Assembly (NCBI GenBank): GCA_029288725.1
Contig: JARIGS010000023.1
Span: 20,582-84,581 of the forward strand
Direction of reading: 5' to 3'
Length of the DNA: 64,000 bases
Source: Candidatus Nomurabacteria bacterium
GTDB lineage: Bacteria > Patescibacteriota > Minisyncoccia > Phycocordibacterales > UBA9973
Position 1 is the first letter of the stretch. Each line of letters begins with the position of its first letter. The notes beneath the pieces are model-generated. The model was not told the DNA's origin. It was given only the letters and a program-made list of their open reading frames with translations, and did no database searches. The translations under genes were made by a program, and so were the position numbers. Positions 25,613-63,201 of this stretch are shown here, piece after piece.

Positions 25613-26413
25613 ATGAGTCTTTATAATACCGAAAAAAAGCATAATAGTCAATCAAATAAGGCTCAAATGTCTGCCGAGGGAGTGATATTGTTCTGGAAAC
25701 AACCAGGCGAGACGTTGGCGGTATTGTTGCGCCGTTTTCGGGAAGAGCGGGGACTTTCTGCCGATGAGAAAGTAACCTATGCCGGACGACTGGATCCGAT
25801 GGCCGAGGGCATCGTGCCGATACTAGTAGGGGAAGCCCGCTTTCAAAAGGATCACCTTATCGGTAAAGCAAAGACCTATGAGGTAGATATATTGTTGGGG
25901 ATTGGTACTGATACGGGGGACATGCTTGGGGTTGCTTCGCCGCGCCATAGCTTTAGCGGAGGAGGGGCTACGGAAAAAAGTGATATTCAAAAGGCCATCA
26001 TCGAACTCTCCCACACCACCGAACTTCCATACCCTCGCTACTCCTCCCGCCCTGTCGACGGCACGCCATTATTTATGCATGCCCGAGCGGGTCGGGCTGT
26101 GACAGTGCCGATTAAGAAGGTCACTATATATAGTATGGAGCTGCTTGGCATTGATGCATTGCCATTATCTACGTTACTCGGTACCGCACAGGATATCATC
26201 AAAAAAGTACAGGGGGATTTTCGACAGGAAGCTATCCTTGAGCAATGGGAAAAGTTAAAAAAAGAAGAGGGAGATACAGCCGCAACAATTGTTCGTATCC
26301 GCACCACCGTTTCATCCGGTACCTATATGCGCTCATTGGCTGAGAGAATGGGGGAGCTCCTCGGCGTGCCAGCATTGGCATATACCATCAAAAGAACTGC
26401 TGTTGAGGAATAA
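25613..26413 (+). CDS. truB: tRNA pseudouridine(55) synthase TruB-like
   Basis: YAGRLDPMAEGIVPILVGEARF (catalytic Asp motif). GC-rich repeat copy embedded at 25934..25973. Start may be the internal Met at 25667. Confidence 0.75.
   Translation: MSLYNTEKKHNSQSNKAQMSAEGVILFWKQPGETLAVLLRRFREERGLSADEKVTYAGRLDPMAEGIVPILVGEARFQKDHLIGKAKTYEVDILLGIGTDTGDMLGVASPRHSFSGGGATEKSDIQKAIIELSHTTELPYPRYSSRPVDGTPLFMHARAGRAVTVPIKKVTIYSMELLGIDALPLSTLLGTAQDIIKKVQGDFRQEAILEQWEKLKKEEGDTAATIVRIRTTVSSGTYMRSLAERMGELLGVPALAYTIKRTAVEE
25934..25973. repeat. GC-rich hairpin-repeat family copy, in-frame inside truB (encodes ...ASPRHSFSGGGATE...)
   Basis: TTCGCCGCGCCATAGCTTTAGCGGAGGAGGGGCTACGG. Shares the words CGCC(A/G)TAGC, TTTAGCG(A/G)AGGAGGG and GCTACGG with the other copies. 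Local GC spike. Confidence 0.55.
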
Positions 26414-28676: not shown

Positions 28677-28683
28677 TAATTTG

Positions 28684-29064
28684 TGGAGATGGGGGTATCG
28701 AAACCCCGTGTGGGTGGAGTGGGCAAGTAAATCTCCATGCGTAGTATCACTTAATGTTTAAGCAACGATCTCGAAGTAATACGAAACGATCATTGTCCGA
28801 GTCTCGTCTTATTCGGTGCGCTCCTGAGACGGGGAGGGCTGCCTATTCTGATGCATGTTGCCGCGAAGTCCTTATCAGAAATCTAGACTGCGACACCAAT
28901 TTGACCTAAGTTAGGCGAAGATTGGAATAGCGCCTGCCATGTAGGGAGACGCTACCTTAGATGAACTGTTTGCAGTTATCTGTGTGAGCGAAGGTTACGG
29001 GATTGCGCTCATACCCGGCATGCATACTTGTCCGACGACCATCCGTCGAAACCTTACATCCCCA
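28684..29064 (-). ncRNA. ssrA: tmRNA (transfer-messenger RNA)
   Basis: The minus-strand RNA starts GGGGAUGUAAGGUUUCGACGG. The 3' end ...CACGGGGUUUCGAUACCCCCAUCUCCA forms a 7-bp acceptor stem with the 5' end, including a G3-U70 wobble (alanine identity). CCA is not encoded. An internal tag-like frame GCA AAC AGU ... ends AUUCCAAUCUUCGCC-UAA. Sits immediately 3' of smpB. Confidence 0.8.
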
Positions 29065-29587: not shown

Positions 29588-31528
29588 ATGCCGAAAAAAG
29601 AACCTAAAAAACATATTGAACAGCACGAATCTATGCCTCCAGCACCGCAGATGCCGCAGCAAAAAAAGCCGGCGCCAAAAAAGTCCCTTTCTTCCTATAT
29701 CTTTTCAACCCTGCTGATTTTTGCAGTCATCGTGGTTATTTTCTCATTCTTCTCAGGATCAGGAACTGACAAAAGCACGACTGTACCCCTATCCGAGGTT
29801 GCACGTTTAGCTGAAGCGGGGGAGATCAAGACCATCGTCGTGGATGATCAGGACCTCACCATTACTAAAACCGATGACAGCGTGGTGAAGTCCAAGAAGG
29901 AAGCCGATGCGTCACTGGTCCAGACATTGTCCTCATACGGTGTCGATGGCACGCACTTGAGTGCCCTTGATATTACCGTTGCTGGCCAATCAGCCCTTCT
30001 GGTTTTTCTCGGTTCAATCTTTTTGCCGATTGTCTTTCCAATTCTTCTCGCAGTCTTCTTCATCTGGATGCTGACCCGTCAGGCCAAGGGTGCCGGCATG
30101 CAGGCATTTAGTTTCGGTCAGTCCAAGGCTCGCATTACCGACCCTAACGATGCCAATAACCGTGTGACCTTCAAGGACGTCGCCGGTGCGCGCGAGGCAA
30201 AGGAGGAACTAAAGGAAATCGTTGACTTCCTTCGCAATCCGAAAAAGTTTTTGGATATTGGTGCGCGCATTCCCAAGGGTGTATTGCTTTCCGGTGCACC
30301 CGGAACAGGGAAGACTCTGCTGGCTCGTGCCGTAGCGGGCGAAGCCGGCGTGCCGTTCTATCATTTGTCCGGTTCTGAATTCGTTGAAATGTTTGTCGGT
30401 GTCGGTGCCTCTCGCGTGCGCGATCTTTTCAAGATGGCCAAGCGTGCTGCTCCTGCCATTATCTTCATTGATGAGATCGATGCGGTTGGACGCGTTCGTG
30501 GTGGTGGTTTCGGTGGCGGCAATGACGAGCGCGAACAGACCTTGAACCAGATCCTTGTGGAGATGGATGGCTTCGAACCCAATGACAAGGTTATCGTCAT
30601 GGCGGCAACAAACCGCAGCGATGTCCTTGATCCAGCATTGCTTCGCCCGGGTCGTTTCGACCGTCGTGTTACTCTCGATCTGCCTGATCGCCGTGACCGT
30701 GAGGATATTTTGACTGTCCACTCCCACAAGAAGCCGTTTGCTGAAGATGTGAATCTGAAAGTGATTGCGGAACGCACGCCAGGATTTTCCGGTGCGGACC
30801 TGTTCTCATTGATGAATGAGGGCGCAATCCTTGCTGCTCGTGAAAATCGCAAGAAGATTTCACAGTTTGATCTTGTCCGTTCAATTGAAAAGGTGATGAT
30901 TGGCCCAGAGCGCAAGAGTCACTTGCTGACCAAGAAGGAAAAACTGATCACGGCCTATCATGAAGCGGCGCATGCCCTTGTTGCATCGGTCTTGCCTGAC
31001 GCTGATCCGGTCCACAAGATCTCGATCGTCTCACGCGGCAATGCTGCGGGATACACGATGAAGATTGCATTGGAGGAACGCAAGCTCAATAACAAGCAGG
31101 AATACTTAGATGACTTGGCAATGTCACTAGCCGGGTATGCCGTTGAGGATATGATCTTTGGCAATGTTTCAACAGGACCTTCAAACGATTTGCAGGTTGC
31201 AACAAGCCTTGCCCGGGCAATGGTCACTCGTTGGGGTATGAGTGAAGTGATCGGACCGTTGGCATTGGAGTCCGATGGTGGCCGAGCAATGTTTGGCCAG
31301 GGTGTTGATAGCAAGGACTATTCTGAAAAGACTGGCGCAACGATTGATGCAGAAGTGCAGCGCATTATGAAGGAGGCGTTGGAGCGCGCGCGTGAAGTGC
31401 TCACTACTCACCGCACCATCCTCGATGTCATTACCAACAAGTTGGTCGAAGTCGAAACATTGGAACAGCCGGAATACGAAGCCATTCTTTCCGCTCACGG
31501 CATTCCGCTTAAGAAGCTCGAAGTCTAA
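29588..31528 (+). CDS. ftsH: ATP-dependent zinc metalloprotease FtsH
   Basis: [22 protein letters not shown] Walker [12 protein letters not shown] zinc site. The ORF opens at 29561 inside the repeat; probable start is MPKKEPKK at 29588. Confidence 0.95.
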
Positions 31529-32637
31529 TGCGCAGCTTTTTCATCAGCATTGTCCTTGTCTTTGGACTGTTCACGTCAGCCCATGCCGCAACACTGAACA
31601 TCGTTCAGCACCCAGTGTCATTTGGCTACAAAACCGCCAGTGGCCGCACTATTGATACAGTAATCATTCATGCAACGTACAATCCTGCCCTCGCCACCCA
31701 AACCCTTGATGGAGCATTGGCGGAATGGAAGGCAAATAATGTCTCGCCGCACTATGCCATTGATCGTGATGGAACTATCTACCAGCTAGTGGCAGAAAAA
31801 AATATTGCCTGGCATGCTGGTGTCAGCACTTTGCCCAATGGGGCGACCAATGTGAATACTCGTTCGATTGGCATTGAAATGGTATACAGCAATACTGACA
31901 CGCCGAGCGATGCCCAGTATGCATCACTGCAGGCATTGATCAGTGACATTGAAAGCCGCTACCATATCACGTATGTCTTGGGACACAGCCAAATTGCACC
32001 AGGCAGAAAAGTTGATCCCTGGAATTTTGATTACACGAGGATTGCAGCGGTAATACCGTCCCACTCAACAAGTTCAGGGCAAACGGCAATATCATCGATG
32101 TTCCATAGTAACGTTACATCGCTTACTACCAATCAAAAAAATACCATGAAGTTGTATTCCTACCGCGCTTCATGTCCGGTTTCGCTTACCAATCTCCGTG
32201 CCGTGAGCGTTTCATATTATGACTTTAATGGCGCAGTCCAGCAGGGAACACTGATCGTCAACAAAACAATTACGGCAAAAACCGTTGCGGCATTTAAGGT
32301 GCTCTTTGCCCAACAATTTCCTATCAATAAGATCACACCAATTGATGCGTACAAGGGAGATGACACTGCCTCAATGGCAGCCGACAATACTTCAGCATTT
32401 AATTGCCGTCCGGTAGCGGGCACGAAAGTGTTTTCTGAACACGCGTATGGCACAGCAATTGATATTAATCCGAAAGAAAATGTCGCCTCCGCCTCGCCCG
32501 CCGTAGCTTTAGCGAAGGAGGGTCAGGGCGTGCTTACTTCCGCCGCGGTGCAGGCAGTGAAAAGTGCCGGCTTTAAATGGGGTGGGGATTGGACGAGCAA
32601 AAAGGACTATCAGCACTTTTCTATAAGTGGGAAATAG
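31528..32637 (+). CDS. Secreted bifunctional peptidoglycan hydrolase: N-acetylmuramoyl-L-alanine amidase (Amidase_2/PGRP) plus peptidase M15 (VanY-like) domain
   Basis: Signal peptide. TVIIHATYN...HYAIDRDGTIYQLVAEKNIAWHAG (amidase_2). C-terminal SEHAYGTAIDINP ... GFKWGGDW..DYQHF (M15). GC-rich repeat copy embedded at 32484..32525. Confidence 0.7.
   Translation: MRSFFISIVLVFGLFTSAHAATLNIVQHPVSFGYKTASGRTIDTVIIHATYNPALATQTLDGALAEWKANNVSPHYAIDRDGTIYQLVAEKNIAWHAGVSTLPNGATNVNTRSIGIEMVYSNTDTPSDAQYASLQALISDIESRYHITYVLGHSQIAPGRKVDPWNFDYTRIAAVIPSHSTSSGQTAISSMFHSNVTSLTTNQKNTMKLYSYRASCPVSLTNLRAVSVSYYDFNGAVQQGTLIVNKTITAKTVAAFKVLFAQQFPINKITPIDAYKGDDTASMAADNTSAFNCRPVAGTKVFSEHAYGTAIDINPKENVASASPAVALAKEGQGVLTSAAVQAVKSAGFKWGGDWTSKKDYQHFSISGK
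32484..32525. repeat. GC-rich hairpin-repeat family copy, in-frame inside the amidase/M15 gene (encodes ...[15 protein letters not shown]...)
   Basis: TCGCCTCCGCCTCGCCCGCCGTAGCTTTAGCGAAGGAGGGTC. Contains CGCCGTAGC and GCGAAGGAGGG. Confidence 0.55.
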
Positions 32638-33705: not shown

Positions 33706-33779
33706 CCGTCCTTAGCTCAGTTGGTTAGAGCTCCGAGCTTATACCTCGGCGGTCCATGGTTCGAATCCATGAGGACGGA
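33706..33779 (+). tRNA. tRNA-Ile with anticodon UAU (TAT)
   Basis: Cloverleaf: acceptor CCGTCCT/AGGACGG, D arm GCTC-AGTTGGTTA-GAGC, anticodon stem CCGAG/CTCGG with loop CTTATAC, T arm CATGG-TTCGAAT-CCATG, discriminator A. CCA is not encoded. Confidence 0.75.
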
Positions 33780-33824
33780 CAAACAAAAAACCCAGATAAA
33801 AATATCTGAGTTTAATTTCTTTTA

Positions 33825-34058: not shown

Positions 34059-34142
34059 TTTTTAATTATTTAATTTTCTTTACATTACTATATCTCAAAG
34101 TTAAGTCAACAACTTGAACTTATAACAATCGGATACCATTCG

Positions 34143-34192
34143 AAAATACACTCCTCAGGGCGGTTCCAAGTATTTGAGGTAGTGCGGACAAT
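34143..34192. repeat. 50-nt conserved element, copy 1 (AAAATACACTCCTCAGGGCGGTTCCAAGTATTTGAGGTAGTGCGGACAAT)
   Basis: 48/50 identical to copy 2. On the minus strand it lies downstream of a terminator hairpin and about 85 nt upstream of the next gene start. Confidence 0.6.
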
Positions 34193-34253: not shown

Positions 34254-34715
34254 TTAGTATCGTAATAGAGCTTTACGCTTATCGACCTCTTTTGCTTTCT
34301 TTGTGAAAAAGACTATGGCAAAAATAGCCATGCAGATACTTCCTAAGATTATCAATCTACCAGACCATAGTCGTGGGGAAACCAACACTATCGTTATAGC
34401 CATCAACACTATTGATATAGCTACAAACCAGGCTCTTTTGCGCAGTGATTTTTCGAGAGGAATAAGTCTTTTTCGTGTCCATTCATTAATTCTTTCATTG
34501 GCGTAATGCCATGAACTAATATAACCTCTTCCGAAAGGGCTTAAATTAAGAACTTCGTTACAAAGTTCTTTTCCGCTGTATGTTTTAGCTCCTACATATA
34601 GGACAAAATTTTCATCTGTTGCAAAACCTTTGATTTCGTCTACTAACGGCTTGGCTTCAGCAAGGACTTCCTCGTTACTTTTTCCTTGCATTTTGGGGTG
34701 TTCAGGTTTTTCCAT
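34254..34715 (-). CDS. Hypothetical protein with C-terminal TM helices
   Basis: 153-aa ORF. AT-rich. No motif recognised. Confidence 0.45.
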   Translation of the reverse strand: MEKPEHPKMQGKSNEEVLAEAKPLVDEIKGFATDENFVLYVGAKTYSGKELCNEVLNLSPFGRGYISSWHYANERINEWTRKRLIPLEKSLRKRAWFVAISIVLMAITIVLVSPRLWSGRLIILGSICMAIFAIVFFTKKAKEVDKRKALLRY

Positions 34716-34797
34716 AACTCTTTAATTTTAATGTTTTCTGTACCTTACCATATTTTTTTGAAATATCAATTAGTGATTCATTAATGAATACAATTCA

Positions 34798-34847
34798 AAA
34801 ATACACTCCTCAGGGCGGTTCCAAGTATTTGAGGTAATACGGACAAT
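34798..34847. repeat. 50-nt conserved element, copy 2
   Basis: AAAATACACTCCTCAGGGCGGTTCCAAGTATTTGAGGTAATACGGACAAT. Followed, like copy 1, by an A-run and a different GC hairpin. Confidence 0.6.
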
Positions 34848-39156: not shown

Positions 39157-39963
39157 ATGAATAAAAAACTACTCACTATTCCAGCCCTTATGCTTGTTGC
39201 AACGGTAGGGTTCACTACTGCTGCATCAGCTGATGTACTCAATGCAAATCTTGGTATTAATGCCACTGTTACCGCACCGCACGTCCAGGTTCGTGGCGAA
39301 AGCGATGATCATATCAGTGATCGCGGCGACATGATGCGCAATTGGGGCGTGTTCGGTACCGTTACAGCCGTCAATGGCAGTACGATTACCGTACAGACCA
39401 AGGCAATGATGAAGGGTAACACCAGTATTCCTGCTGCAACGTATACCGTTACCACCTCAAGCAGTACGACCGTTGATAAGAACAATGCAACAAGTTCCGT
39501 CTCTGCAATCGCTGTCGGTGATACCGTGATGGTGGAAGGCACCATGAACGGTACGACCATTACGGCTAGCCGGATTCATGATGGTCTGATGATGAAAGGT
39601 CCAGGAACAGGAAATAGTACGAGCACTTCAGCTAATTTCCCTGCGGGCAATGGTCAGCCAGTGATTGGCGGCACGGTAAGTGCAGTCAATGGTAATACTA
39701 TTACCATCACCAATCAGAGCAATGCCTCATATACTATTGATGTCACCAATGCCAAGATCACCAAGGGTAATGCCACCAGTACTGCTGGAAACATTGCAGT
39801 TGGCGACAACCTCATCGCCCAGGGCACGATCAATGGCAACACCGTTACTGCGGTCAATGTCATCGACAGTAGTGTTACCGCCAACACCAACAATGGTGAA
39901 CACCGCGGATTCTTCGGTTCAATCGGAAGCTTCTTCGCACACCTCTTTGGGTTTGGAAAGTAA
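39157..39963 (+). CDS. Secreted protein with three DUF5666-like repeats
   Basis: Signal peptide. Thrice-repeated unit GTVTAVNGSTITVQT ... IAVGDTVMVEGTMNGTTITASRI. Confidence 0.5.
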   Translation: MNKKLLTIPALMLVATVGFTTAASADVLNANLGINATVTAPHVQVRGESDDHISDRGDMMRNWGVFGTVTAVNGSTITVQTKAMMKGNTSIPAATYTVTTSSSTTVDKNNATSSVSAIAVGDTVMVEGTMNGTTITASRIHDGLMMKGPGTGNSTSTSANFPAGNGQPVIGGTVSAVNGNTITITNQSNASYTIDVTNAKITKGNATSTAGNIAVGDNLIAQGTINGNTVTAVNVIDSSVTANTNNGEHRGFFGSIGSFFAHLFGFGK

Positions 39964-39989: not shown

Positions 39990-40025
39990 GAAAAGGGCCA
40001 CGCCTACGGCGTGGCCCTTTTTATG
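39990..40025 (+). terminator. Rho-independent terminator
   Basis: AAAAGGGCCACGCC-TAC-GGCGTGGCCCTTTTT. Confidence 0.8.
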
Positions 40026-40079
40026 TCTAGAGGGGGTTTATATTTTCTCCCTTTTGAGCTATGATATCCTCACAATCCT

Positions 40080-40164
40080 GGAGGATTGGATGAGTGGTTT
40101 AAATCAACGGTTTACTAAACCGTCGGCTGTCACAGGCCCGTGAGTTCGAATCTCACATCCTCCG
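40080..40164 (+). tRNA. Class II tRNA (Ser-type: 3-bp D stem, long variable arm, G73) with apparent anticodon ACU
   Basis: Acceptor GGAGGAT/ATCCTCC. D stem GAT/ATC. Anticodon stem ACGGT/ACCGT with loop TTACTAA. Variable arm about 16 nt. T arm GTGAG-TTCGAAT-CTCAC. CCA is not encoded. GCU or a UCN-reading anticodon was expected; A34 is unusual. Confidence 0.6.
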
Positions 40165-40262
40165 CCTTCGCCGCGCTGAAGCGACGGCTACGGCGCGACA
40201 CAGTCCGCCCAGTAGCAAGTCGCGAAAGCGGGTTCGCCGCGCCGTAGCTTCGACGAAACGCA
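40164..40262. repeat. Longest GC-rich hairpin-repeat family copy, overlapping and abutting the tRNA 3' end
   Basis: CCTCCGCCTTCGCCGCGCTGAAGCGACGGCTACGGCGCGAC...CGCCGCGCCGTAGCTTCGACG. Contains both GCTACGGCG and its reverse complement CGCCGTAGC as an imperfect roughly 16-bp inverted repeat. About 70% GC in a roughly 35% GC neighbourhood. Confidence 0.6.
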
Positions 40263-40332
40263 GTGCGCAAAGACTTTATTCTAATATTTTTTCTTTAAAT
40301 ATTCTTGACCACCCATTTGCTATAACCAATGA

Positions 40333-40569
40333 ATGTATTACGTTTACATTCTAACCGTTAAAGACGGCTTCTATATTGGTTGCACTGATGACTTGAAGTC
40401 TCGCATTGAAAGACACAAAAACGGCCACGTCCCTGCCACTAAAGACAGACTTCCTCTTCAGCTTAAAAATTATATTGCTTTCATTTCAAAATATTCTGCA
40501 TTCGAATTTGAACGATATTTAAAGTCTGGATCGGGAAGAAGTTTTTGTAAAAAGCATTTTAATTTATAA
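40333..40569 (+). CDS. GIY-YIG nuclease-superfamily protein (single-domain, YhbQ-like)
   Basis: MYYVYILTVKDGFYIGCTDDLKSRIERHKNG...EFERYLK carries the GIY-YIG signature Y-x-Y ... Y-I-G ... R ... E. Confidence 0.65.
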   Translation: MYYVYILTVKDGFYIGCTDDLKSRIERHKNGHVPATKDRLPLQLKNYIAFISKYSAFEFERYLKSGSGRSFCKKHFNL

Positions 40570-40577
40570 TTCCTCCT

Positions 40578-40973
40578 ATGCCAATGACTATTAAAACTAC
40601 TGTTAAGGATACTCCGGATAAGGGAAGCGGACTTTTTACTGTAGAAAAAATAACAAAAGGAGATATTGTTTTTAGGGACGATCCTAGCTTTGACAGGGTA
40701 TTTTCGAGAGAAGAGGTGCAATCAATGCCAAACGTATTGAGGGAATTTGTAAAATTCTATGCGTCATACGATAAGAAGAAGCAGGAATACTATCTTGATG
40801 CCGATAATACCAAGTTTATTAATCACAGTGACAACCCTAATATTACCTATATCGAAGACAAGGGGGTAATGGTTGCTACAAGAGATATCGATAGTGACGA
40901 AGAACTGACTTCGGACTACAGAGAGTATGATGATCCGTCCAAAGAGGGTAATTTCGGATTTGAATTTAAATAG
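40578..40973 (+). CDS. SET-domain protein (putative protein-lysine methyltransferase)
   Basis: GSGLFTVEKITKGDIVF ... FINHSDNPN ... EELTSDY matches the SET motifs (GxG, NHS-x-x-PN, ELxxDY). 131 aa. Confidence 0.65.
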   Translation: MPMTIKTTVKDTPDKGSGLFTVEKITKGDIVFRDDPSFDRVFSREEVQSMPNVLREFVKFYASYDKKKQEYYLDADNTKFINHSDNPNITYIEDKGVMVATRDIDSDEELTSDYREYDDPSKEGNFGFEFK

Positions 40974-41061
40974 TGACTATTATTCCGGTAGTACGTTTGA
41001 CCCCATAATAAAACCCTCTCATTATTTAATGAGAGGGGGATAGTGTAATTTTTTAGGTTCA

Positions 41062-41604
41062 TTACGGAACCGTAATGCTTTTTGAAAATGCAGAATTGTC
41101 GATCTTGTATCTGACATAGTCAGAAGTTGATGCGGGAGTGGTGTAGGCGAGCGTGTTCAGGGTGAGGGTATAAGTACCTGAGCCCGAAGGAAAATAGGTA
41201 ACCGTGATTTTAAATTCCTTGGTGGTGCCTTTTTCAATAGTATAGTTTCCCATACCGTCTGCCTTAAGGCTTCTTACACCCACCACGCTGGCAGAGCCAT
41301 TAGCTGAGAGCAGGATACTACCATTATTTATAGTGTACTGGCAGGCATTGCTAAGGTCTTGCAGGGCCGGGGCTTGTATTGTTCCTTGCGATATATTTAG
41401 CAATCGCGAGGATAGATGCGTCGATTGGTCCCTGGCCGTCAACAAAAAATCAATGGTGTAGGTTATTGCGCCGCTAACAGTATCTATAGAAGCAGCGACG
41501 TTTACTATTTTTGGCGGATCAAATATTGTAATATAGCCGGTTTTTTGGCACGACGTCATGCATAGCAATCCTAGTGCCATAACAAGGGTGAAAAGCTTTT
41601 TCAT
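41062..41604 (-). CDS. Hypothetical lipoprotein
   Basis: Signal peptide with lipobox (…LLCMTSC). 180 aa, beta-rich. Confidence 0.5.
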   Translation of the reverse strand: MKKLFTLVMALGLLCMTSCQKTGYITIFDPPKIVNVAASIDTVSGAITYTIDFLLTARDQSTHLSSRLLNISQGTIQAPALQDLSNACQYTINNGSILLSANGSASVVGVRSLKADGMGNYTIEKGTTKEFKITVTYFPSGSGTYTLTLNTLAYTTPASTSDYVRYKIDNSAFSKSITVP

Positions 41605-41753
41605 TTCCTATACTTTTTATGTGATTTGAGAATGTGGATTTTCTAAAATAATATCACATTTATCATAAAAGTCAATTAGCCTTGACGATACAGGGTGAAA
41701 TGACTATTATCACCATTGTAAGGTTAATTTGTCTACGGACGTACTATTTATAT

Positions 41754-43136
41754 ATGAAGAAATTTGGATACAAATCAATATTAGCAATGGTTATCGGGGC
41801 GGTCGCATCACTGGCTTTTGCCGCTCAGGTATTTGCCATGACACCAACATTGTCACTGACCAGTAACGGCTATGGCAGCATGCAGGTCAATGTCTTTGGC
41901 GATGCCAATGCCTCAGTGATCTTGGATTATTATTCAGGTGGACAGCTCATGGGGGCCGGGGTGATCGGTACTACCAACTACAGTGGCTATTTCAGCGGGC
42001 AGTTGAATCCGGGCAACTATGCGATTCCCAACGGCGCACAGGTCTTGGTTGTAGTAAACGGCCAGCAGTCAGCATCAACTACCTGGACTAACAATGGTTA
42101 TAACAACGGTGGATACAATAACGGCTCACTGTCACTCAGCCAGACATCAGTGAACCTTTCTGTTGGCCAGAGCGTGAGTATCACTGCTTACAATACCAGC
42201 GGTTCATTGTATGTTTCAACTAACTCAAACAGTGCAGTAGCAAATGCGACAGCATACGGTAATCAAATCACTATCAACGCTGTTGGATACGGATCCTCAT
42301 CACTGACAATTTGCTCTACCTACAATTACAATGGATGCAGTACTGTCTATGTAACCGTGAATGGTGGCTCAAATAATCAGACACCGGTGAGTCTCAGTCA
42401 GTCTAACGTGTCATTGGTAGTAGGGCAGACGCAGACGGTCTACATCAATAGTCTCTACAACAACAATAACGGCTATTACAACAATGGTCAGTACACCCTT
42501 TCCAATCTTTCAAGTGGTATCGTCTCTGCAACGATCAGCGGCAATGCCATTACCTTGTACGGACAGAATGCCGGCTCATCTACTATTAGTGTCTGCTCAA
42601 ACGGCTATAACGGGGGATACAATAATGGCTACTACGGCAGCACCACCTGTGCGAACTTGTACGTAACCGTTACAGGAAACTACGGATATCCTACCAATCC
42701 AACCTACCCATACTATCCACCAAACAATTACTACAACCAGCTCACGGTAAGCAACAGCAATGTTCAGGTGACTGTCGGAAACAGTGGCAGCGTGGTGATC
42801 AATGGCGGTATTAATTATTACAACAATGGCTATAACGGTGGATACACTAATGGGTATTACGGTTCTGGCAATGACTTCTACATAGCAAATAATAATTCCG
42901 GCATTGCCAATGCAACCATCAATGGAAATAACATCACCGTTTACGGTCTTGCAGCGGGCACGACTTCAGTGACAGTGTGTCAGACCAGTACCAATCAGTG
43001 CGCGACGATCAATGTCACGGTCATCGCACCGAACTACTACAACTACGGCATCTATAATGGACAGTACCAGTACGTTCCTTCACAGAATGGTCAGTACTAC
43101 TACTCATACAATGAACGCCGTTGGTGTCATCGATAA
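41754..43136 (+). CDS. Secreted surface protein with four Big_2-like (bacterial Ig-like) repeats separated by Asn/Gly/Tyr-rich linkers
   Basis: Signal peptide. Repeated unit LSLSQTSVNLSVGQSVSIT...AVANATAYGNQITINAVGYGSSSLTICS...CSTVYVTVNG. NNGYYNNG low-complexity linkers. The ORF is open from 41682. Confidence 0.55.
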   Translation: MKKFGYKSILAMVIGAVASLAFAAQVFAMTPTLSLTSNGYGSMQVNVFGDANASVILDYYSGGQLMGAGVIGTTNYSGYFSGQLNPGNYAIPNGAQVLVVVNGQQSASTTWTNNGYNNGGYNNGSLSLSQTSVNLSVGQSVSITAYNTSGSLYVSTNSNSAVANATAYGNQITINAVGYGSSSLTICSTYNYNGCSTVYVTVNGGSNNQTPVSLSQSNVSLVVGQTQTVYINSLYNNNNGYYNNGQYTLSNLSSGIVSATISGNAITLYGQNAGSSTISVCSNGYNGGYNNGYYGSTTCANLYVTVTGNYGYPTNPTYPYYPPNNYYNQLTVSNSNVQVTVGNSGSVVINGGINYYNNGYNGGYTNGYYGSGNDFYIANNNSGIANATINGNNITVYGLAAGTTSVTVCQTSTNQCATINVTVIAPNYYNYGIYNGQYQYVPSQNGQYYYSYNERRWCHR

Positions 43137-43147
43137 TATGAAATAAC

Positions 43148-43182
43148 AAAAGGGCCCCGCCGTCGGCGGGGCCCTTTTGTTT
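43148..43182 (+). terminator. Rho-independent terminator
   Basis: AAAAGGGCCCCGCCG-TC-GGCGGGGCCCTTTTG. Confidence 0.8.
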
Positions 43183-43231
43183 GACTTTTTATTCGAGCGT
43201 GATAAGTTGGAAAAAACAAAATCTTTCATAT

Positions 43232-43666
43232 ATGAAAAAAATATCCGTAATCTTTCCCACAAGAAACTTCTTGTGCGGAGCCACCTCCCTCTATTTGTTG
43301 GCTGTGTTCTTCAATATCCCATTTAGTGCCGCATCCGTCCTGATGACATTCGGTATCATGACTATTGTCATCCTCCATTATCTGTTTCTGTATGCCATAC
43401 AGACAGAGTTTAAAAAATGGCGATGGGCAGTATGGACCCTCAGTTTCATTACCTGTGTAGGTGAGTTGGTAATCCTGTACTGGCCGATACATATCATTTC
43501 CTCGTTCCAGGGATATTATGTCGTTGGTCGCCAAGAGTCGGCGTTGTTCTTCCTGTGGAATATCGCAGTCAATGTTAGCATTACACTCATTCCTCTATTA
43601 TGGAGCTTGTTCCGTCCCGTATGGCAGTGGTGTCAACACCGCCTGTTCCTCCGATTTGCGAAGTAA
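43232..43666 (+). CDS. Hypothetical polytopic membrane protein
   Basis: Four hydrophobic helices. The ORF is open from 43181; the start is chosen at MKKISVIF, downstream of the terminator. Confidence 0.4.
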   Translation: MKKISVIFPTRNFLCGATSLYLLAVFFNIPFSAASVLMTFGIMTIVILHYLFLYAIQTEFKKWRWAVWTLSFITCVGELVILYWPIHIISSFQGYYVVGRQESALFFLWNIAVNVSITLIPLLWSLFRPVWQWCQHRLFLRFAK

Positions 43667-43695: not shown

Positions 43696-43783
43696 TGGCG
43701 GAGACGGAGGGATTCGAACCCTCGAGGCTGTGACACCTGCCTCCTTAGCAAGGAGGTACGTTAGACCACTCCGACACGTCTCC
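43696..43783 (-). tRNA. tRNA-Ser (anticodon GCU), CCA encoded
   Basis: Minus-strand sequence GGAGACGTGTCGGAGTGGTCTAACGTACCTCCTTGCTAAGGAGG...GGGTTCGAATCCCTCCGTCTCCGCCA. Anticodon loop TTGCTAA, long variable arm, G73, 3' CCA. Confidence 0.85.
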
Positions 43784-58772: not shown

Positions 58773-59473
58773 TAGACAAACATCCCTCCTTCGCATCTCG
58801 CTTTACTCGACGCTACGGCGCGGCGAGGGGCTTTACGCTCGTGGAAATGCTTGTCGTGGTCGCAATCTTTGCCGTCGTAGCAACTATTCTGCTTTTTAAT
58901 TACTCTGACTTCAGTACCAGTATCGGTGTCCGCAATCTGGCTGAAGAGATTGGTCTCAGTACTCGTAAGGCTCAGACCTATGCAACCGGTGTTCGTGTCA
59001 TCAGTGGTACAAATGGATTGTACAGTGACATGTTCCCGGCCTATGGCGTCACTTTCTCCGTTAATGCCAACGCGGCCACAACCTACGATCCAACCATTAA
59101 TAACTTCGCATTGTTTGCCGACGTTGCGCCTAACAATGACCGTGTCACCAACAATACTTATGACAACAACGGCACGTGTGGCGTACCTGATGTTGGACAG
59201 GAATGCGTTGAGAACTTTGCTTTCACCGGACAGGATACTATTGCCTCACTATGTACTGATGTGCCGACAGCGAACACCTGCATGACGCCGGCCAATGGTG
59301 GGGGAACGGTGAACGTGGTCTTTCACCGTCCAAATCCGGATGCCGTGATCTGCGTCAGCGGGGTAAACTGCGCAACTCGCCAGGCATCGTACGTGAAGGT
59401 GACGGTCCAGTCACCGAAGGGTGCACAGCGTATTATTACTATTTGGAATACTGGTCAGATAAGCGTCAATTAA
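58763..59473 (+). CDS. Minor pilin with unusually long 23-aa prepeptide
   Basis: MAIVDKHPSFASRFTRRYGAARG/FTLVEMLVVVAIFAVV. The leader contains a GC-rich repeat copy. Cys-rich C-terminal domain. The ORF is open from 58616. Confidence 0.7.
   Translation: MAIVDKHPSFASRFTRRYGAARGFTLVEMLVVVAIFAVVATILLFNYSDFSTSIGVRNLAEEIGLSTRKAQTYATGVRVISGTNGLYSDMFPAYGVTFSVNANAATTYDPTINNFALFADVAPNNDRVTNNTYDNNGTCGVPDVGQECVENFAFTGQDTIASLCTDVPTANTCMTPANGGGTVNVVFHRPNPDAVICVSGVNCATRQASYVKVTVQSPKGAQRIITIWNTGQISVN
58785..58831. repeat. GC-rich hairpin-repeat family copy inside the minor-pilin leader peptide coding region
   Basis: CCCTCCTTCGC-ATCTCGCTTTACTC-GACGCTACGGCGCGGCGAGGGGC encodes ...SFASRFTRRYGAARG. Confidence 0.55.

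Positions 59474-60652: not shown

Positions 60653-63201
<2,549 letters not shown>

Follow-up and report, generated by a model that had tools for sequence, protein, structure and literature searches.

A tRNA-Ser(ACU) gene beside a GIY-YIG cassette and a SET-domain gene in a Patescibacteria chromosome segment

What does a tRNA gene with adenosine at the first anticodon position do in a bacterium, and which of the genes that follow it belong to it? Both questions are raised by a stretch of 64,000 nucleotides from Candidatus Nomurabacteria bacterium (GenBank assembly GCA_029288725.1, contig JARIGS010000023.1, positions 20,582 to 84,581 of the forward strand), which is referred to in full as the window. 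The window is a chromosome segment of Patescibacteria (candidate phyla radiation, CPR; Paceibacterota-like) with a GC content of 46%, and its proteins have close homologues named Paceibacterota, Kaiserbacteria, Moranbacteria and Nomurabacteria. Within it, an apparent tRNA-Ser(ACU) gene is directly followed by a GC-rich repeat, a gene for a small GIY-YIG nuclease and a gene for a SET-domain protein. Our analysis indicates that three unrelated things probably lie side by side here, namely a conserved tRNA-Ser(ACU), an invading cassette, and a SET gene that forms accessory cargo together with a neighbouring gene. The broader proposal, that Patescibacteria have a phylum-wide rewired wobble (no inosine, Arg(GCG), Ile(UAU) and an A34 reader of AGU) and in addition carry undescribed selfish cassettes of about 0.3 kb that target CCGCC, is tentative and falls somewhat short of what we would call probable.

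The tRNA-Ser(ACU) gene and its codon reading

ARAGORN found three tRNA genes in the window, Ile(UAU), Ser(ACU) and Ser(GCU), all confirmed by Rfam. The two tRNA-Ser genes, and the signals just upstream of the first, are the following.

39993 to 40024, plus strand: hairpin and T-run that ends the upstream DUF5666 gene (39157-39963), read from the sequence, with overlapping terminator-like sites
40037 to 40065, plus strand: promoter-like site (TTTATA, 17 nt, TATGAT) about 14 nt 5' of the tRNA, from a consensus scan
40080 to 40164, plus strand: tRNA-Ser(ACU), class II, ending at G73, by ARAGORN and Rfam
43696 to 43783, minus strand: tRNA-Ser(GCU), by ARAGORN and Rfam, convergent with tRNA-Ser(ACU) and about 3.5-3.6 kb downstream of it

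An earlier note on this DNA had read the anticodon as ACU in a canonical class II fold, and both ARAGORN (tRNA-Ser(ACT), 40080-40166, + strand) and the Rfam tRNA covariance model RF00005 (55.1 bits against a gathering score of 29) agree with this. The Ser-type features named in that note are all visible in the sequence, i.e., a 3-bp D stem, a 16-nt variable arm, which has its own 4-bp stem, and G73; no stem contains a non-canonical pair, and the anticodon loop in the Rfam fold is UUACUAA. C74 and C75 (40165-40166) are followed by T, and A76 is not encoded. The second tRNA-Ser(GCU) gene, expected about 3.6 kb away on the other strand, was found there by both programs. The bodies of the two genes are unlike in all stems, and on these grounds it was ruled out that either arose from the other by recent duplication.

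Conservation was assessed in related stretches from other assemblies (loci L001 and so on), each of which samples about 1% of a genome. A pattern scan with the D-arm and anticodon-arm sequence, which held the D stem and the anticodon stem constant and left the anticodon free, covered one genome per species and returned at least 120 loci. Among the matches listed, ACT was found in at least 76 species loci, labelled Saccharibacteria, Paceibacteria/-ota, Nomurabacteria, Parcubacteria, Minisyncoccia, Taylorbacteria, Patescibacteria or without a phylum, and GCT was found in 43 loci, from Bacteroidota plus one each from Chlorobiota, Dadabacteria and Gemmatimonadaceae; one further locus represented a chance match outside a tRNA. 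In a sister lineage represented by independent Joint Genome Institute (JGI) metagenome assemblies (L004, L005, L006, L008, L009 and L010), the same tRNA is present with A34 and differs from that of the window only in compensatory changes of the variable-arm stem. This lineage shares with the window the gene order DUF4383, RecG, RRM, TMEM175, DUF5666 and then the tRNA, and the part from RecG to DUF5666 is kept in L004, L031, L047 and L101. Since A34 recurs in independent assemblies and in at least 76 species-representative genomes, it is not a sequencing error. The GCTATGAT block of the promoter-like site at 40037-40065 is also kept in L004 and L101, and we infer a putative promoter role for this site.

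The fold of the tRNA is maintained by compensatory change as well. Among 54 distinct ACU homologues, 99.6% of the pair cells are standard and nine pairs have changed on both sides; the covariation score of the alignment was 0.306, compared with 0.081 for 500 shuffles, none of which scored as high, and no more than 0.070 for slid partners. Three of the four variable-arm pairs covary, and G73 is invariant. Because the pattern scan held the anticodon stem constant, particular weight is carried by five additional ACU tRNA genes that came independently from a scan for the GIY-YIG protein (see below), which have other D arms and other anticodon stems and still the loop UUACUAA. This loop was found in 82 of 82 ACU genes. 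A tRNA-Ser(GCU) gene lies within 8 kb of tRNA-Ser(ACU) in 48 of 72 lineages and is upstream in 46 of these 48, with 32 of the 48 forming head-to-head pairs spaced by 51-364 nt; the window and its sister lineage are the only ones among the 72 in which it lies downstream.

These comparisons argue that tRNA-Ser(ACU) is a genuine, vertically inherited gene characteristic of Patescibacteria. The suggestion that it might be borne by a mobile element is refuted by its vertical conservation in the fixed synteny of RecG, RRM, TMEM175 and DUF5666. No description of a CPR tRNA-Ser(ACU) was found in the literature searched, which is not proof of absence.

With regard to decoding, seryl-tRNA synthetase (SerRS) ignores the anticodon, and since the serine identity set (long variable arm, G73) is present, charging with serine is presumed. 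A34 is most likely an unmodified adenosine that reads AGU only. The seryl-tRNA would read AGU by a Watson-Crick pair, and the neighbouring tRNA-Ser(GCU) would cover AGC and, by wobble, AGU. In E. coli, an orthogonal tRNA with an ACU anticodon was found to decode AGU (9.4%), and no reading of AGC or AGA was detected (PMC11066159), which fits a U-specific reader.

A 2021 review describes ANN anticodons in split boxes, including A34 in the Ser/Arg box, as "universally missing", and assigns to bacteria an Arg(ACG) with tadA, without Arg(GCG) and Ile(UAU) (PMC8007984). The CPR loci contradict this account on three points, as Ser(ACU), Ile(UAU) and Arg(GCG) are all present. In CPR-type loci, the tRNA-Arg anticodons were GCG (n=11) and CCG (n=5) and never ACG (n=0); examples of Arg(GCG) are L146 1013-1085, on a contig that also carries Ser(ACU), and L134 5538-5610. 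The use of GCG in place of ACG suggests that inosine decoding, and with it TadA, is probably absent in the lineage; without ICG decoding TadA would not be needed and A34 would stay adenosine. In a lineage that seems to have dropped inosine decoding, an unmodified A34 reader therefore seems workable. The tRNA-Ile(UAU) gene of the window lies at 33706-33780 (+), has the loop CUUAUAC and was also seen in 11 other CPR loci, which implies that AUA is read without lysidine.

Codon usage was consulted for signs of the additional AGY reader. The AGU share is 0.68 in the CPR loci, equal to that of other NNY boxes, and 0.49 in the Bacteroidota loci, where it is below that of AAY and GAY; this gap is a weak hint that the ACU tRNA removes a cost of AGU, in a comparison confounded by GC content at third codon positions (GC3). 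AGA occurs 42 times in the window and 1418 times in the CPR loci, and it encodes Arg102 of the SET protein, which is aligned with a conserved arginine. Recoding of AGA to serine was considered and was rejected on this limited evidence, i.e., the AGA codon at Arg102 and the frequency of AGA in CPR loci.

Several points weigh against the interpretation of tRNA-Ser(ACU) as a phylum-wide, unmodified reader of AGU. AGU is not in excess in the window (221 codons, with 192 of AGC), and no evident advantage of a second AGY reader was found. The absence of TadA is deduced from the 64-kb window and from Arg(GCG) loci that bear no taxonomic label. In addition, the constant anticodon stem of the pattern scan means that the number of ACU loci does not measure breadth across CPR classes.

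It is unlikely, in our assessment, that tRNA-Ser(ACU) is instead an inosine decoder, in which a TadA-like deaminase would produce I34 and thereby allow AGU, AGC and, weakly, AGA to be read. Outside organelles and Mollicutes, deamination is the fate of almost every known A34 tRNA (PMC11066159, PMC8007984), which would be in line with such a role, and the loop has U33, A34, C35, A37 and A38 in common with bacterial tRNA-Arg(ACG), the TadA substrate. However, the determinant of TadA in the loop is G36 plus C32, as found in E. coli TadA minihelix work (summarised in PMC11066159), and tRNA-Ser(ACU) has U36 and U32 where tRNA-Arg(ACG) has G36 and C32. Moreover, an ICU anticodon would misread AGA (Arg) as serine in a genome that uses AGA and encodes a conserved arginine with it, and the adjoining GCU gene, which would be redundant beside ICU, is retained in most lineages. 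The tRNA-Arg genes of related loci, with GCG and not ACG, leave nothing that requires TadA, and the failure of the ACU tRNA to read AGC in E. coli implies that it was not deaminated there. No deaminase motif (HAE...PCxxC) was found in the open reading frames (ORFs) of the 64-kb window. A tblastn search of 1.33 Mb of loci with E. coli TadA matched only a dCMP-deaminase-like ORF, and was uninformative given that each locus represents about 1% of a genome. This sole match, L134 3289-3786, is a gene of the dCMP/cytidine-deaminase family (PF00383) that lies directly after a cassette of the type described below.

A non-ribosomal role of tRNA-Ser(ACU), in which it would donate serine for the modification of cell wall or lipids or act as a decoy, is very unlikely. 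Gram-positive bacteria are known to use some tRNA isoacceptors outside protein synthesis, in making the cell wall, and the redundancy of AGY reading with the GCU gene, together with the lack of an AGU excess in the window, would suit such a role. Nevertheless, the anticodon loop is invariant in 82 sequences while the stems drift, and as SerRS is blind to the anticodon, this invariance points to codon reading; the AGU share of 0.68 in CPR loci against a depressed 0.49 in Bacteroidota loci with GCU only is a further, weak and confounded, argument in the same direction. Finally, ACU and GCU are one transition apart and a normal GCU gene lies about 3.6 kb away, but a G34A mutant, pseudogene or assembly error of a Ser(GCU) gene, the first two of which the earlier note had left open, can be given practically no credence and is refuted by the conservation of the gene in 82 sequences, independent assemblies and at least 76 species, by the covariation of its compensated stems, by its invariant anticodon loop and by a body unlike that of the local GCU gene throughout.

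The GIY-YIG gene, its GC-rich leader and their placement

The earlier note described the 3' end of the tRNA as fused to a GC-rich repeat and followed by an AT-rich islet, and both descriptions hold: a block of 67% GC (40162-40275) begins at 40162 and shares CCGCC with the tRNA end, and the region behind it (40276-41061) has 35% GC compared to 46% in the window. The parts up to the end of the GIY-YIG gene are listed here; R1 denotes a covariance model built for the GC-rich element.

40162 to 40234, plus strand: structured GC-rich element, leader of the GIY-YIG cassette (R1, 70.3 bits, E 1.5e-13)
40235 to 40275, plus strand: incomplete second GC-rich unit (TTCGCCGCGCCGTAGCTTCGACGAAACG...), one of the short forms of this repeat family
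40276 to 40332, plus strand: AT-rich leader, 25% GC, conserved with the L004 and L001 cassettes in alignment
40333 to 40569, plus strand: 78-aa single-domain GIY-YIG nuclease gene of UPF0213 type (Pfam PF01541)

Metagenomes were searched with the protein alignment of the GIY-YIG nuclease, which returned 80 loci. A tRNA gene lies within 600 nt in 52 of the 64 GIY-YIG loci with at least 300 nt of upstream sequence. On the same strand, 57 GIY-YIG genes have a tRNA at most 700 nt upstream, which is a tRNA-Ser in 52 of the 57 (Ser GCU 19, GGA 15, UGA 10, CGA 5 and ACU 3; the others are Asp 3 and Trp 2). The junction is nearly always CCGCC/TTCG, where CCGCC represents C71, C72, G73, C74 and C75 of the tRNA gene and A76 is lost; a smaller subtype has CCGC/TTTCACC. 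Cassettes follow CCGCC tRNA ends directly and point the same way as the tRNA gene, which is in the great majority of cases a tRNA-Ser, whatever its anticodon. They can also be found between two adjoining tRNA genes, in which case they end 5-20 nt past the stop codon. In the window, L004 and L001 (the closest relative, with 86% protein identity), the GC-rich block, the AT-rich leader and the ORF are in common and the homology ends at the GIY-YIG stop codon.

The GC-rich element is closely tied to this gene. Of 81 GIY-YIG genes, 68 have an R1 match at most 250 nt upstream, and the median distance from the end of the match to the start codon is about 17 nt; in 721 kb of tRNA-centred loci R1 matched only three times, and the element therefore belongs to the cassette and not to tRNAs generally. 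In the window, R1 detects one full copy and short relatives. The full copy (40162-40234), which opens with the CCGCC that is also the tRNA 3' end, folds into a long irregular hairpin with the apical stem-loop GGCGCGAC-ACAG-TCCGCC. The partial unit at 40235-40275 is an inverted-repeat match to 58802-58826 and one of the short forms that R1 detects, and the AT-rich leader at 40276-40332 possibly acts as a promoter of its own.

An alignment of 21 leaders yielded a unit of about 68 nt composed, in this order, of CCGCCUUCG, P1 (6 bp), a GAA/GAA internal loop, P2, a CUAC/GUAG helix and the apical hairpin GGCGGAC-AAAG-UCCGCC. In this alignment, 92% of the cells are paired and six pairs show double changes; covariation was 0.224, compared with 0.111 for 500 shuffles, none of which scored as high, and no more than 0.065 for slid partners, and P1 column 16 covaries with column 68. 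The presence of 23 G.U pairs against 5 A.C pairs points to the sense strand as the structured one, i.e., to RNA. Two other foldings, a local hairpin in place of the long-range pairing of P1 and P2 and a closing helix CCUUCGC/GCGAAGG, are possible on sequence and have no covariation support. An intrinsic terminator was also considered and rejected, since no T-run follows the element in the window and elsewhere a start codon comes 2-20 nt on. With Rfam 15, nothing beyond chance was found in 40060-40600 at E values up to 10, and at gathering thresholds no family for the GC-rich element was found in the whole window.

Short relatives of the element, of 36-49 nt, were seen in the window at 25932-25968 (+), 32489-32524 (+), 58782-58830 (-) and 61462-61498 (-). 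Two are inside coding regions, in an amidase/M15 peptidase gene (31528-32637) and in ligA (61156-63201); among the others, one is a weak match in truB and one is located between prepilin peptidase and pilin genes. These short relatives may be in-frame mini-insertions.

The GIY-YIG domain that had been recognised by eye is supported by Pfam (PF01541, 40.4 bits against a cut-off of 22.6, E 3.7e-10). More than 400 homologues have 64-86% identity, and in 30 of them 25 residues are invariant, including Y5, Y14, G16 and R24, with E58 and E60 nearly so; the catalytic Tyr, Tyr, Arg and Glu are kept in the protein. Its structure model has a pLDDT of 95.6, and the best PDB match is UPF0213 protein BH0048 (1ZG2; Foldseek E 3.4e-4, 37% identity). 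Viral contigs contained nine distant GIY-YIG relatives (at most 46% identity) with no adjacent tRNA, and a phage origin of the cassette was rejected in view of this distance and of the tRNA-free surroundings. A description of a tRNA-linked small GIY-YIG gene was not found in the literature searched, which again does not prove absence.

Occupancy of the tRNA ends varies. The site behind tRNA-Ser(ACU) is filled in the window and in L004, and empty at the same tRNA in L101. In the closest relative, Ser(ACU) has an encoded CCA followed by an ordinary hairpin without a cassette, and the cassette of this relative is located on the same contig, 12.8 kb from Ser(ACU). Different tRNA-Ser genes are occupied in different loci, several copies may be present per locus, and truncated cassette copies and a solo leader exist. 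In the sister population, one and the same cassette, together with the 6 kb of DNA behind it, occurs in two settings, adjoining the tRNA or adjoining a His_Phos_1 gene. The His_Phos_1 context was seen in L002, L003, L007 and L011, and the context of DUF5666 plus Ser(ACU) in L004, L005, L006, L008, L009 and L010; the junction, at position 5778 of L002 and L004, is exactly CCGCC/TTCG. This two-context junction could represent rearrangement between cassette copies, co-conversion, or mis-assembly at a repeat.

Taken together, the GC-rich leader and the GIY-YIG gene form a predicted selfish cassette of about 0.3 kb that occupies tRNA 3' ends and is unrelated to the oddity of A34. Read-through from the tRNA promoter and 3' processing of the tRNA probably deliver the nuclease mRNA, and RNase Z and the CCA-adding enzyme would keep the invaded tRNA functional. 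The hairpin probably limits translation of the nuclease, and the cassette would probably spread by nuclease-triggered recombination, with the conserved tRNA end as homology arm.

Some observations speak against a selfish cassette with this specificity. The 78 aa of the nuclease are all catalytic domain without a DNA-binding domain, which leaves its site recognition unexplained; about one fifth of cassettes have no upstream tRNA, with CCGCC still kept; and an identity of 64-86% between proteins from different CPR classes would also be compatible with a conserved function in the cell. Accordingly, the GIY-YIG gene and its RNA leader might represent a housekeeping module of tRNA-Ser biology, for example in transcript or gene processing or in repair, an alternative that we consider rather unlikely. 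The high conservation of the protein, the strict co-orientation with tRNA-Ser genes, the behaviour of the leader as a sense-strand RNA structure (23 G.U against 5 A.C) and the tRNA-like minihelix upstream of some tRNA-less copies would all be expected of such a module. Patchy occupancy would not be, with the closest relative empty at this tRNA, nor would an occupied Ser isoacceptor gene that varies among genomes, with several occupied per locus, the existence of truncated ORFs and a solo leader, or the same cassette in two different upstream contexts within one population. The selfish cassette is the interpretation that we retain.

Further copies show how the cassette and its relatives are arranged elsewhere. 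Cassettes without an upstream tRNA (L001 5760-5830, L134, L143, L177, L152, L136 and others) retain the CCGCC start, have a T-loop-like GTTC[G/T]AAC motif 10 or 15 nt before it, and in 6 of 16 have an acceptor-like helix (tRNA-like minihelix) that closes 2-3 nt before the element; L206 and L207 carry a plain tRNA 3' fragment. In L110 (5351-5700), an intact Ser(ACU) has no element at its end and no GIY-YIG gene, and about 170 nt past it the tRNA 3' end recurs twice, first inverted and then direct, before a solo full-length GC-rich element. In Bacteroidota, what comes after Ser(GCU) is a tandem array of four GIY-YIG copies with tRNA-Pro genes among them in L105 (2196-3900), a GIY-YIG gene preceded by four GC-hairpin repeats, each of about 85 nt, in L102 (1595-2442), and a short hairpin of the GC-rich family in L089 (5165-5201). 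The presence of GIY-YIG genes and hairpins behind Ser(GCU) of Bacteroidota indicates that the link to tRNA-Ser reaches beyond CPR.

The SET-domain gene and the region between the two tRNA-Ser genes

Between the GIY-YIG gene and tRNA-Ser(GCU), the window contains the following features.

40578 to 40973, plus strand: 131-aa stand-alone SET-domain gene (Pfam PF00856), outside the cassette
41014 to 41037, no strand assigned: terminator-like hairpin between the convergent SET and 180-aa genes, from a consensus scan
41062 to 41604, minus strand: 180-aa ORF with a lipoprotein-like N-terminus, no Pfam or NCBIfam match, absent from L004
41682 to 43136, plus strand: 484-aa Big_2 / pilus-N-like surface protein (Pfam)
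43181 to 43666, plus strand: 161-aa membrane-like ORF, no family match in Pfam or NCBIfam

The SET domain proposed from the motifs of the translated ORF was borne out by both the hidden Markov model (HMM) and the structure prediction. The ORF matches PF00856 with 47.4 bits (against 22.4; E 2.9e-12) over profile positions 1-104 of 105, and its model (pLDDT 93.7) has a confident SET fold, with a Foldseek probability of 1.00 to SETD8, S. pombe Set7, MLL1 and vSET at TM-scores of 0.5-0.64. The motifs GxG, NHS and ELxxDY are all present; among 40 homologues G16, N82, H83, E109 and Y114 are invariant and G18 and S84 nearly so. The protein looks like an active small lysine methyltransferase, a prediction made from sequence and model, and it belongs to a small stand-alone SET family with 533 cluster representatives at E values of at most 1e-10, mostly of 120-135 aa.

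The gene is not part of the cassette; SET as cassette cargo was ruled out because cassette homology stops at the GIY-YIG stop codon. Its 37% GC and a tenfold excess of AGA/AGG codons (6 in 131) mark it as foreign. Between the two tRNA-Ser genes, only the Big_2 protein is common to the window and the sister lineage (tblastn, 43-55% identity to L004 10631-11770, where it lies beside tRNA-Ser(GCU)), and six other genes take the place of the SET and 180-aa genes in that lineage. The region, with the two tRNA-Ser genes as its borders, is thus variable, and the SET and 180-aa genes are its accessory cargo. Homologues of the SET gene with 30-36% identity were seen directly after a GIY-YIG gene in L212 (3-673), the one recurrence of that order, about 0.8 kb from a GIY-YIG gene in L205 (4049-4432), and 0.5 kb upstream of tRNA-Ser(ACU) in L017 (2327-2644). 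By impression, SET homologues recur near cassette and tRNA sites more than expected by chance.

The earlier note had seen in this layout a tRNA-targeted integration. tRNA genes are classic integration sites, and the region past the tRNA is AT-rich and different between sister lineages. That the tRNA is part of an integrated mobile element, or marks an island made by an integrase with GIY-YIG and SET as one unit, is nevertheless highly improbable: no tyrosine or serine recombinase domain was found with Pfam and NCBIfam among the ORFs of 40333-43666, a repeat of the tRNA 3' end was not found in the window, the 5' side of the tRNA lies in conserved synteny, and the shared mobile unit stops at the GIY-YIG stop codon, leaving out SET. 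Since a recombinase and a repeat of the tRNA end were not found, the locus is better described as a variable, tRNA-bounded region than as a demonstrable integrase island. What stands of the idea is a small cassette at tRNA-Ser 3' ends; the integrase, the repeat of the tRNA end and the membership of SET do not.

Elsewhere in the window, a tmRNA gene was found by Rfam at 28681-29063 (-; 89.2 bits). Just downstream of tRNA-Ile(UAU), two copies of a 60-nt direct repeat (34133-34192 and 34788-34847) are 93% identical, and an AT-rich ORF without a family match (34254-34715, -) sits between them.

Significance and comparison with known systems

Each component of the locus is of a known kind, a tRNA isoacceptor, a free-standing GIY-YIG gene and a small SET protein. 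The tRNA variant, by comparison, breaks a rule stated as universal, and the cassette with its RNA leader and specificity for tRNA-Ser ends appears to be undescribed. That split boxes lack A34 counts as a universal decoding rule, for which misreading by A or I at the wobble position is the usual explanation, and a phylum that keeps Ser(ACU) under purifying selection would provide a natural test case for it. If our interpretation is true, this is natural, phylum-wide use of an anticodon called universally forbidden in split codon boxes, in a phylum whose tRNA-Arg(ACG) also seems to have been lost and in which tRNA-Ile(UAU) seems to be in use. The question of A34 could be addressed directly in cultivable Saccharibacteria, for which genetic tools have been reported (PMC10633639), if the gene is present there. 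For annotation, Ser(ACU) genes are at risk of being flagged as pseudo or odd tRNAs. As for the cassette, the widespread small GIY-YIG family UPF0213 gains a genomic behaviour, i.e., lodging at tRNA-Ser 3' ends with an RNA leader; the GC-rich leader is a new candidate structured RNA, and the cassette would account for repeats of high GC content in CPR genomes and for one or more of their rearrangement junctions.

Among tRNAs, an encoded and presumably undeaminated A34 in a reduced genome is also found in Mycoplasma tRNA-Thr(AGU) and yeast mitochondrial tRNA-Arg(ACG) (PMC11066159). These sit in four-codon boxes, where loose reading is harmless, whereas Ser(ACU) is in the split Ser/Arg box and, unlike them, coexists with a G34 isoacceptor. 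The tRNA-Ser(GCU) of Bacteroidota is similar to Ser(ACU) in its class II fold, G73, D arm, anticodon stem and the loop UUNCUAA, but it has G34 in place of A34, and in Patescibacteria Ser(ACU) is present in addition to a GCU gene with a different body.

The small GIY-YIG protein has its closest counterparts in UPF0213/COG2827 (B. halodurans BH0048, PDB 1ZG2; E. coli YhbQ), which are likewise single-domain GIY-YIG proteins of 80-100 aa; in contrast to the cassette, neither a tRNA linkage nor an RNA leader was reported for them in the literature searched. In phage T4, SegB (mentioned in PMC13096335) is a free-standing GIY-YIG homing endonuclease that is encoded in a tRNA gene cluster. SegB and the cassette are alike in that a GIY-YIG ORF lies between tRNA genes, is polymorphic for presence and absence, and presumably spreads through the repair of breaks. 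The SegB protein is roughly threefold larger and includes a part that binds DNA, while the cassette protein is a 78-aa catalytic domain alone; the cassette, unlike SegB, is chromosomal in CPR bacteria, lies at the CCGCC end of tRNA-Ser genes and has a structured leader. Hairpins are known to sequester the ribosome-binding site of homing-endonuclease genes such as I-TevI, and the stable hairpin that ends a few nt before the start codon in the cassette resembles these, with occlusion of the ribosome-binding site as the probable consequence. Elements of the IS200/IS605 type show site-specific insertion next to a short target; the cassette is like them in its insertion always just 3' of one pentanucleotide and beside a long imperfect palindrome, and differs in having neither an HUH transposase nor a right-end hairpin.

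For the SET protein, the nearest parallels are vSET of a Chlorella virus, S. pombe Set7 and the core of SETD8. Identity to them is only 19-25%, and the gene of the window is from a variable region of a CPR genome. The likeness consists of the SET fold, the GxG, NHS and ELxxDY motifs and a size of about 120-130 aa, and all four proteins are alike in being without a post-SET zinc cluster.

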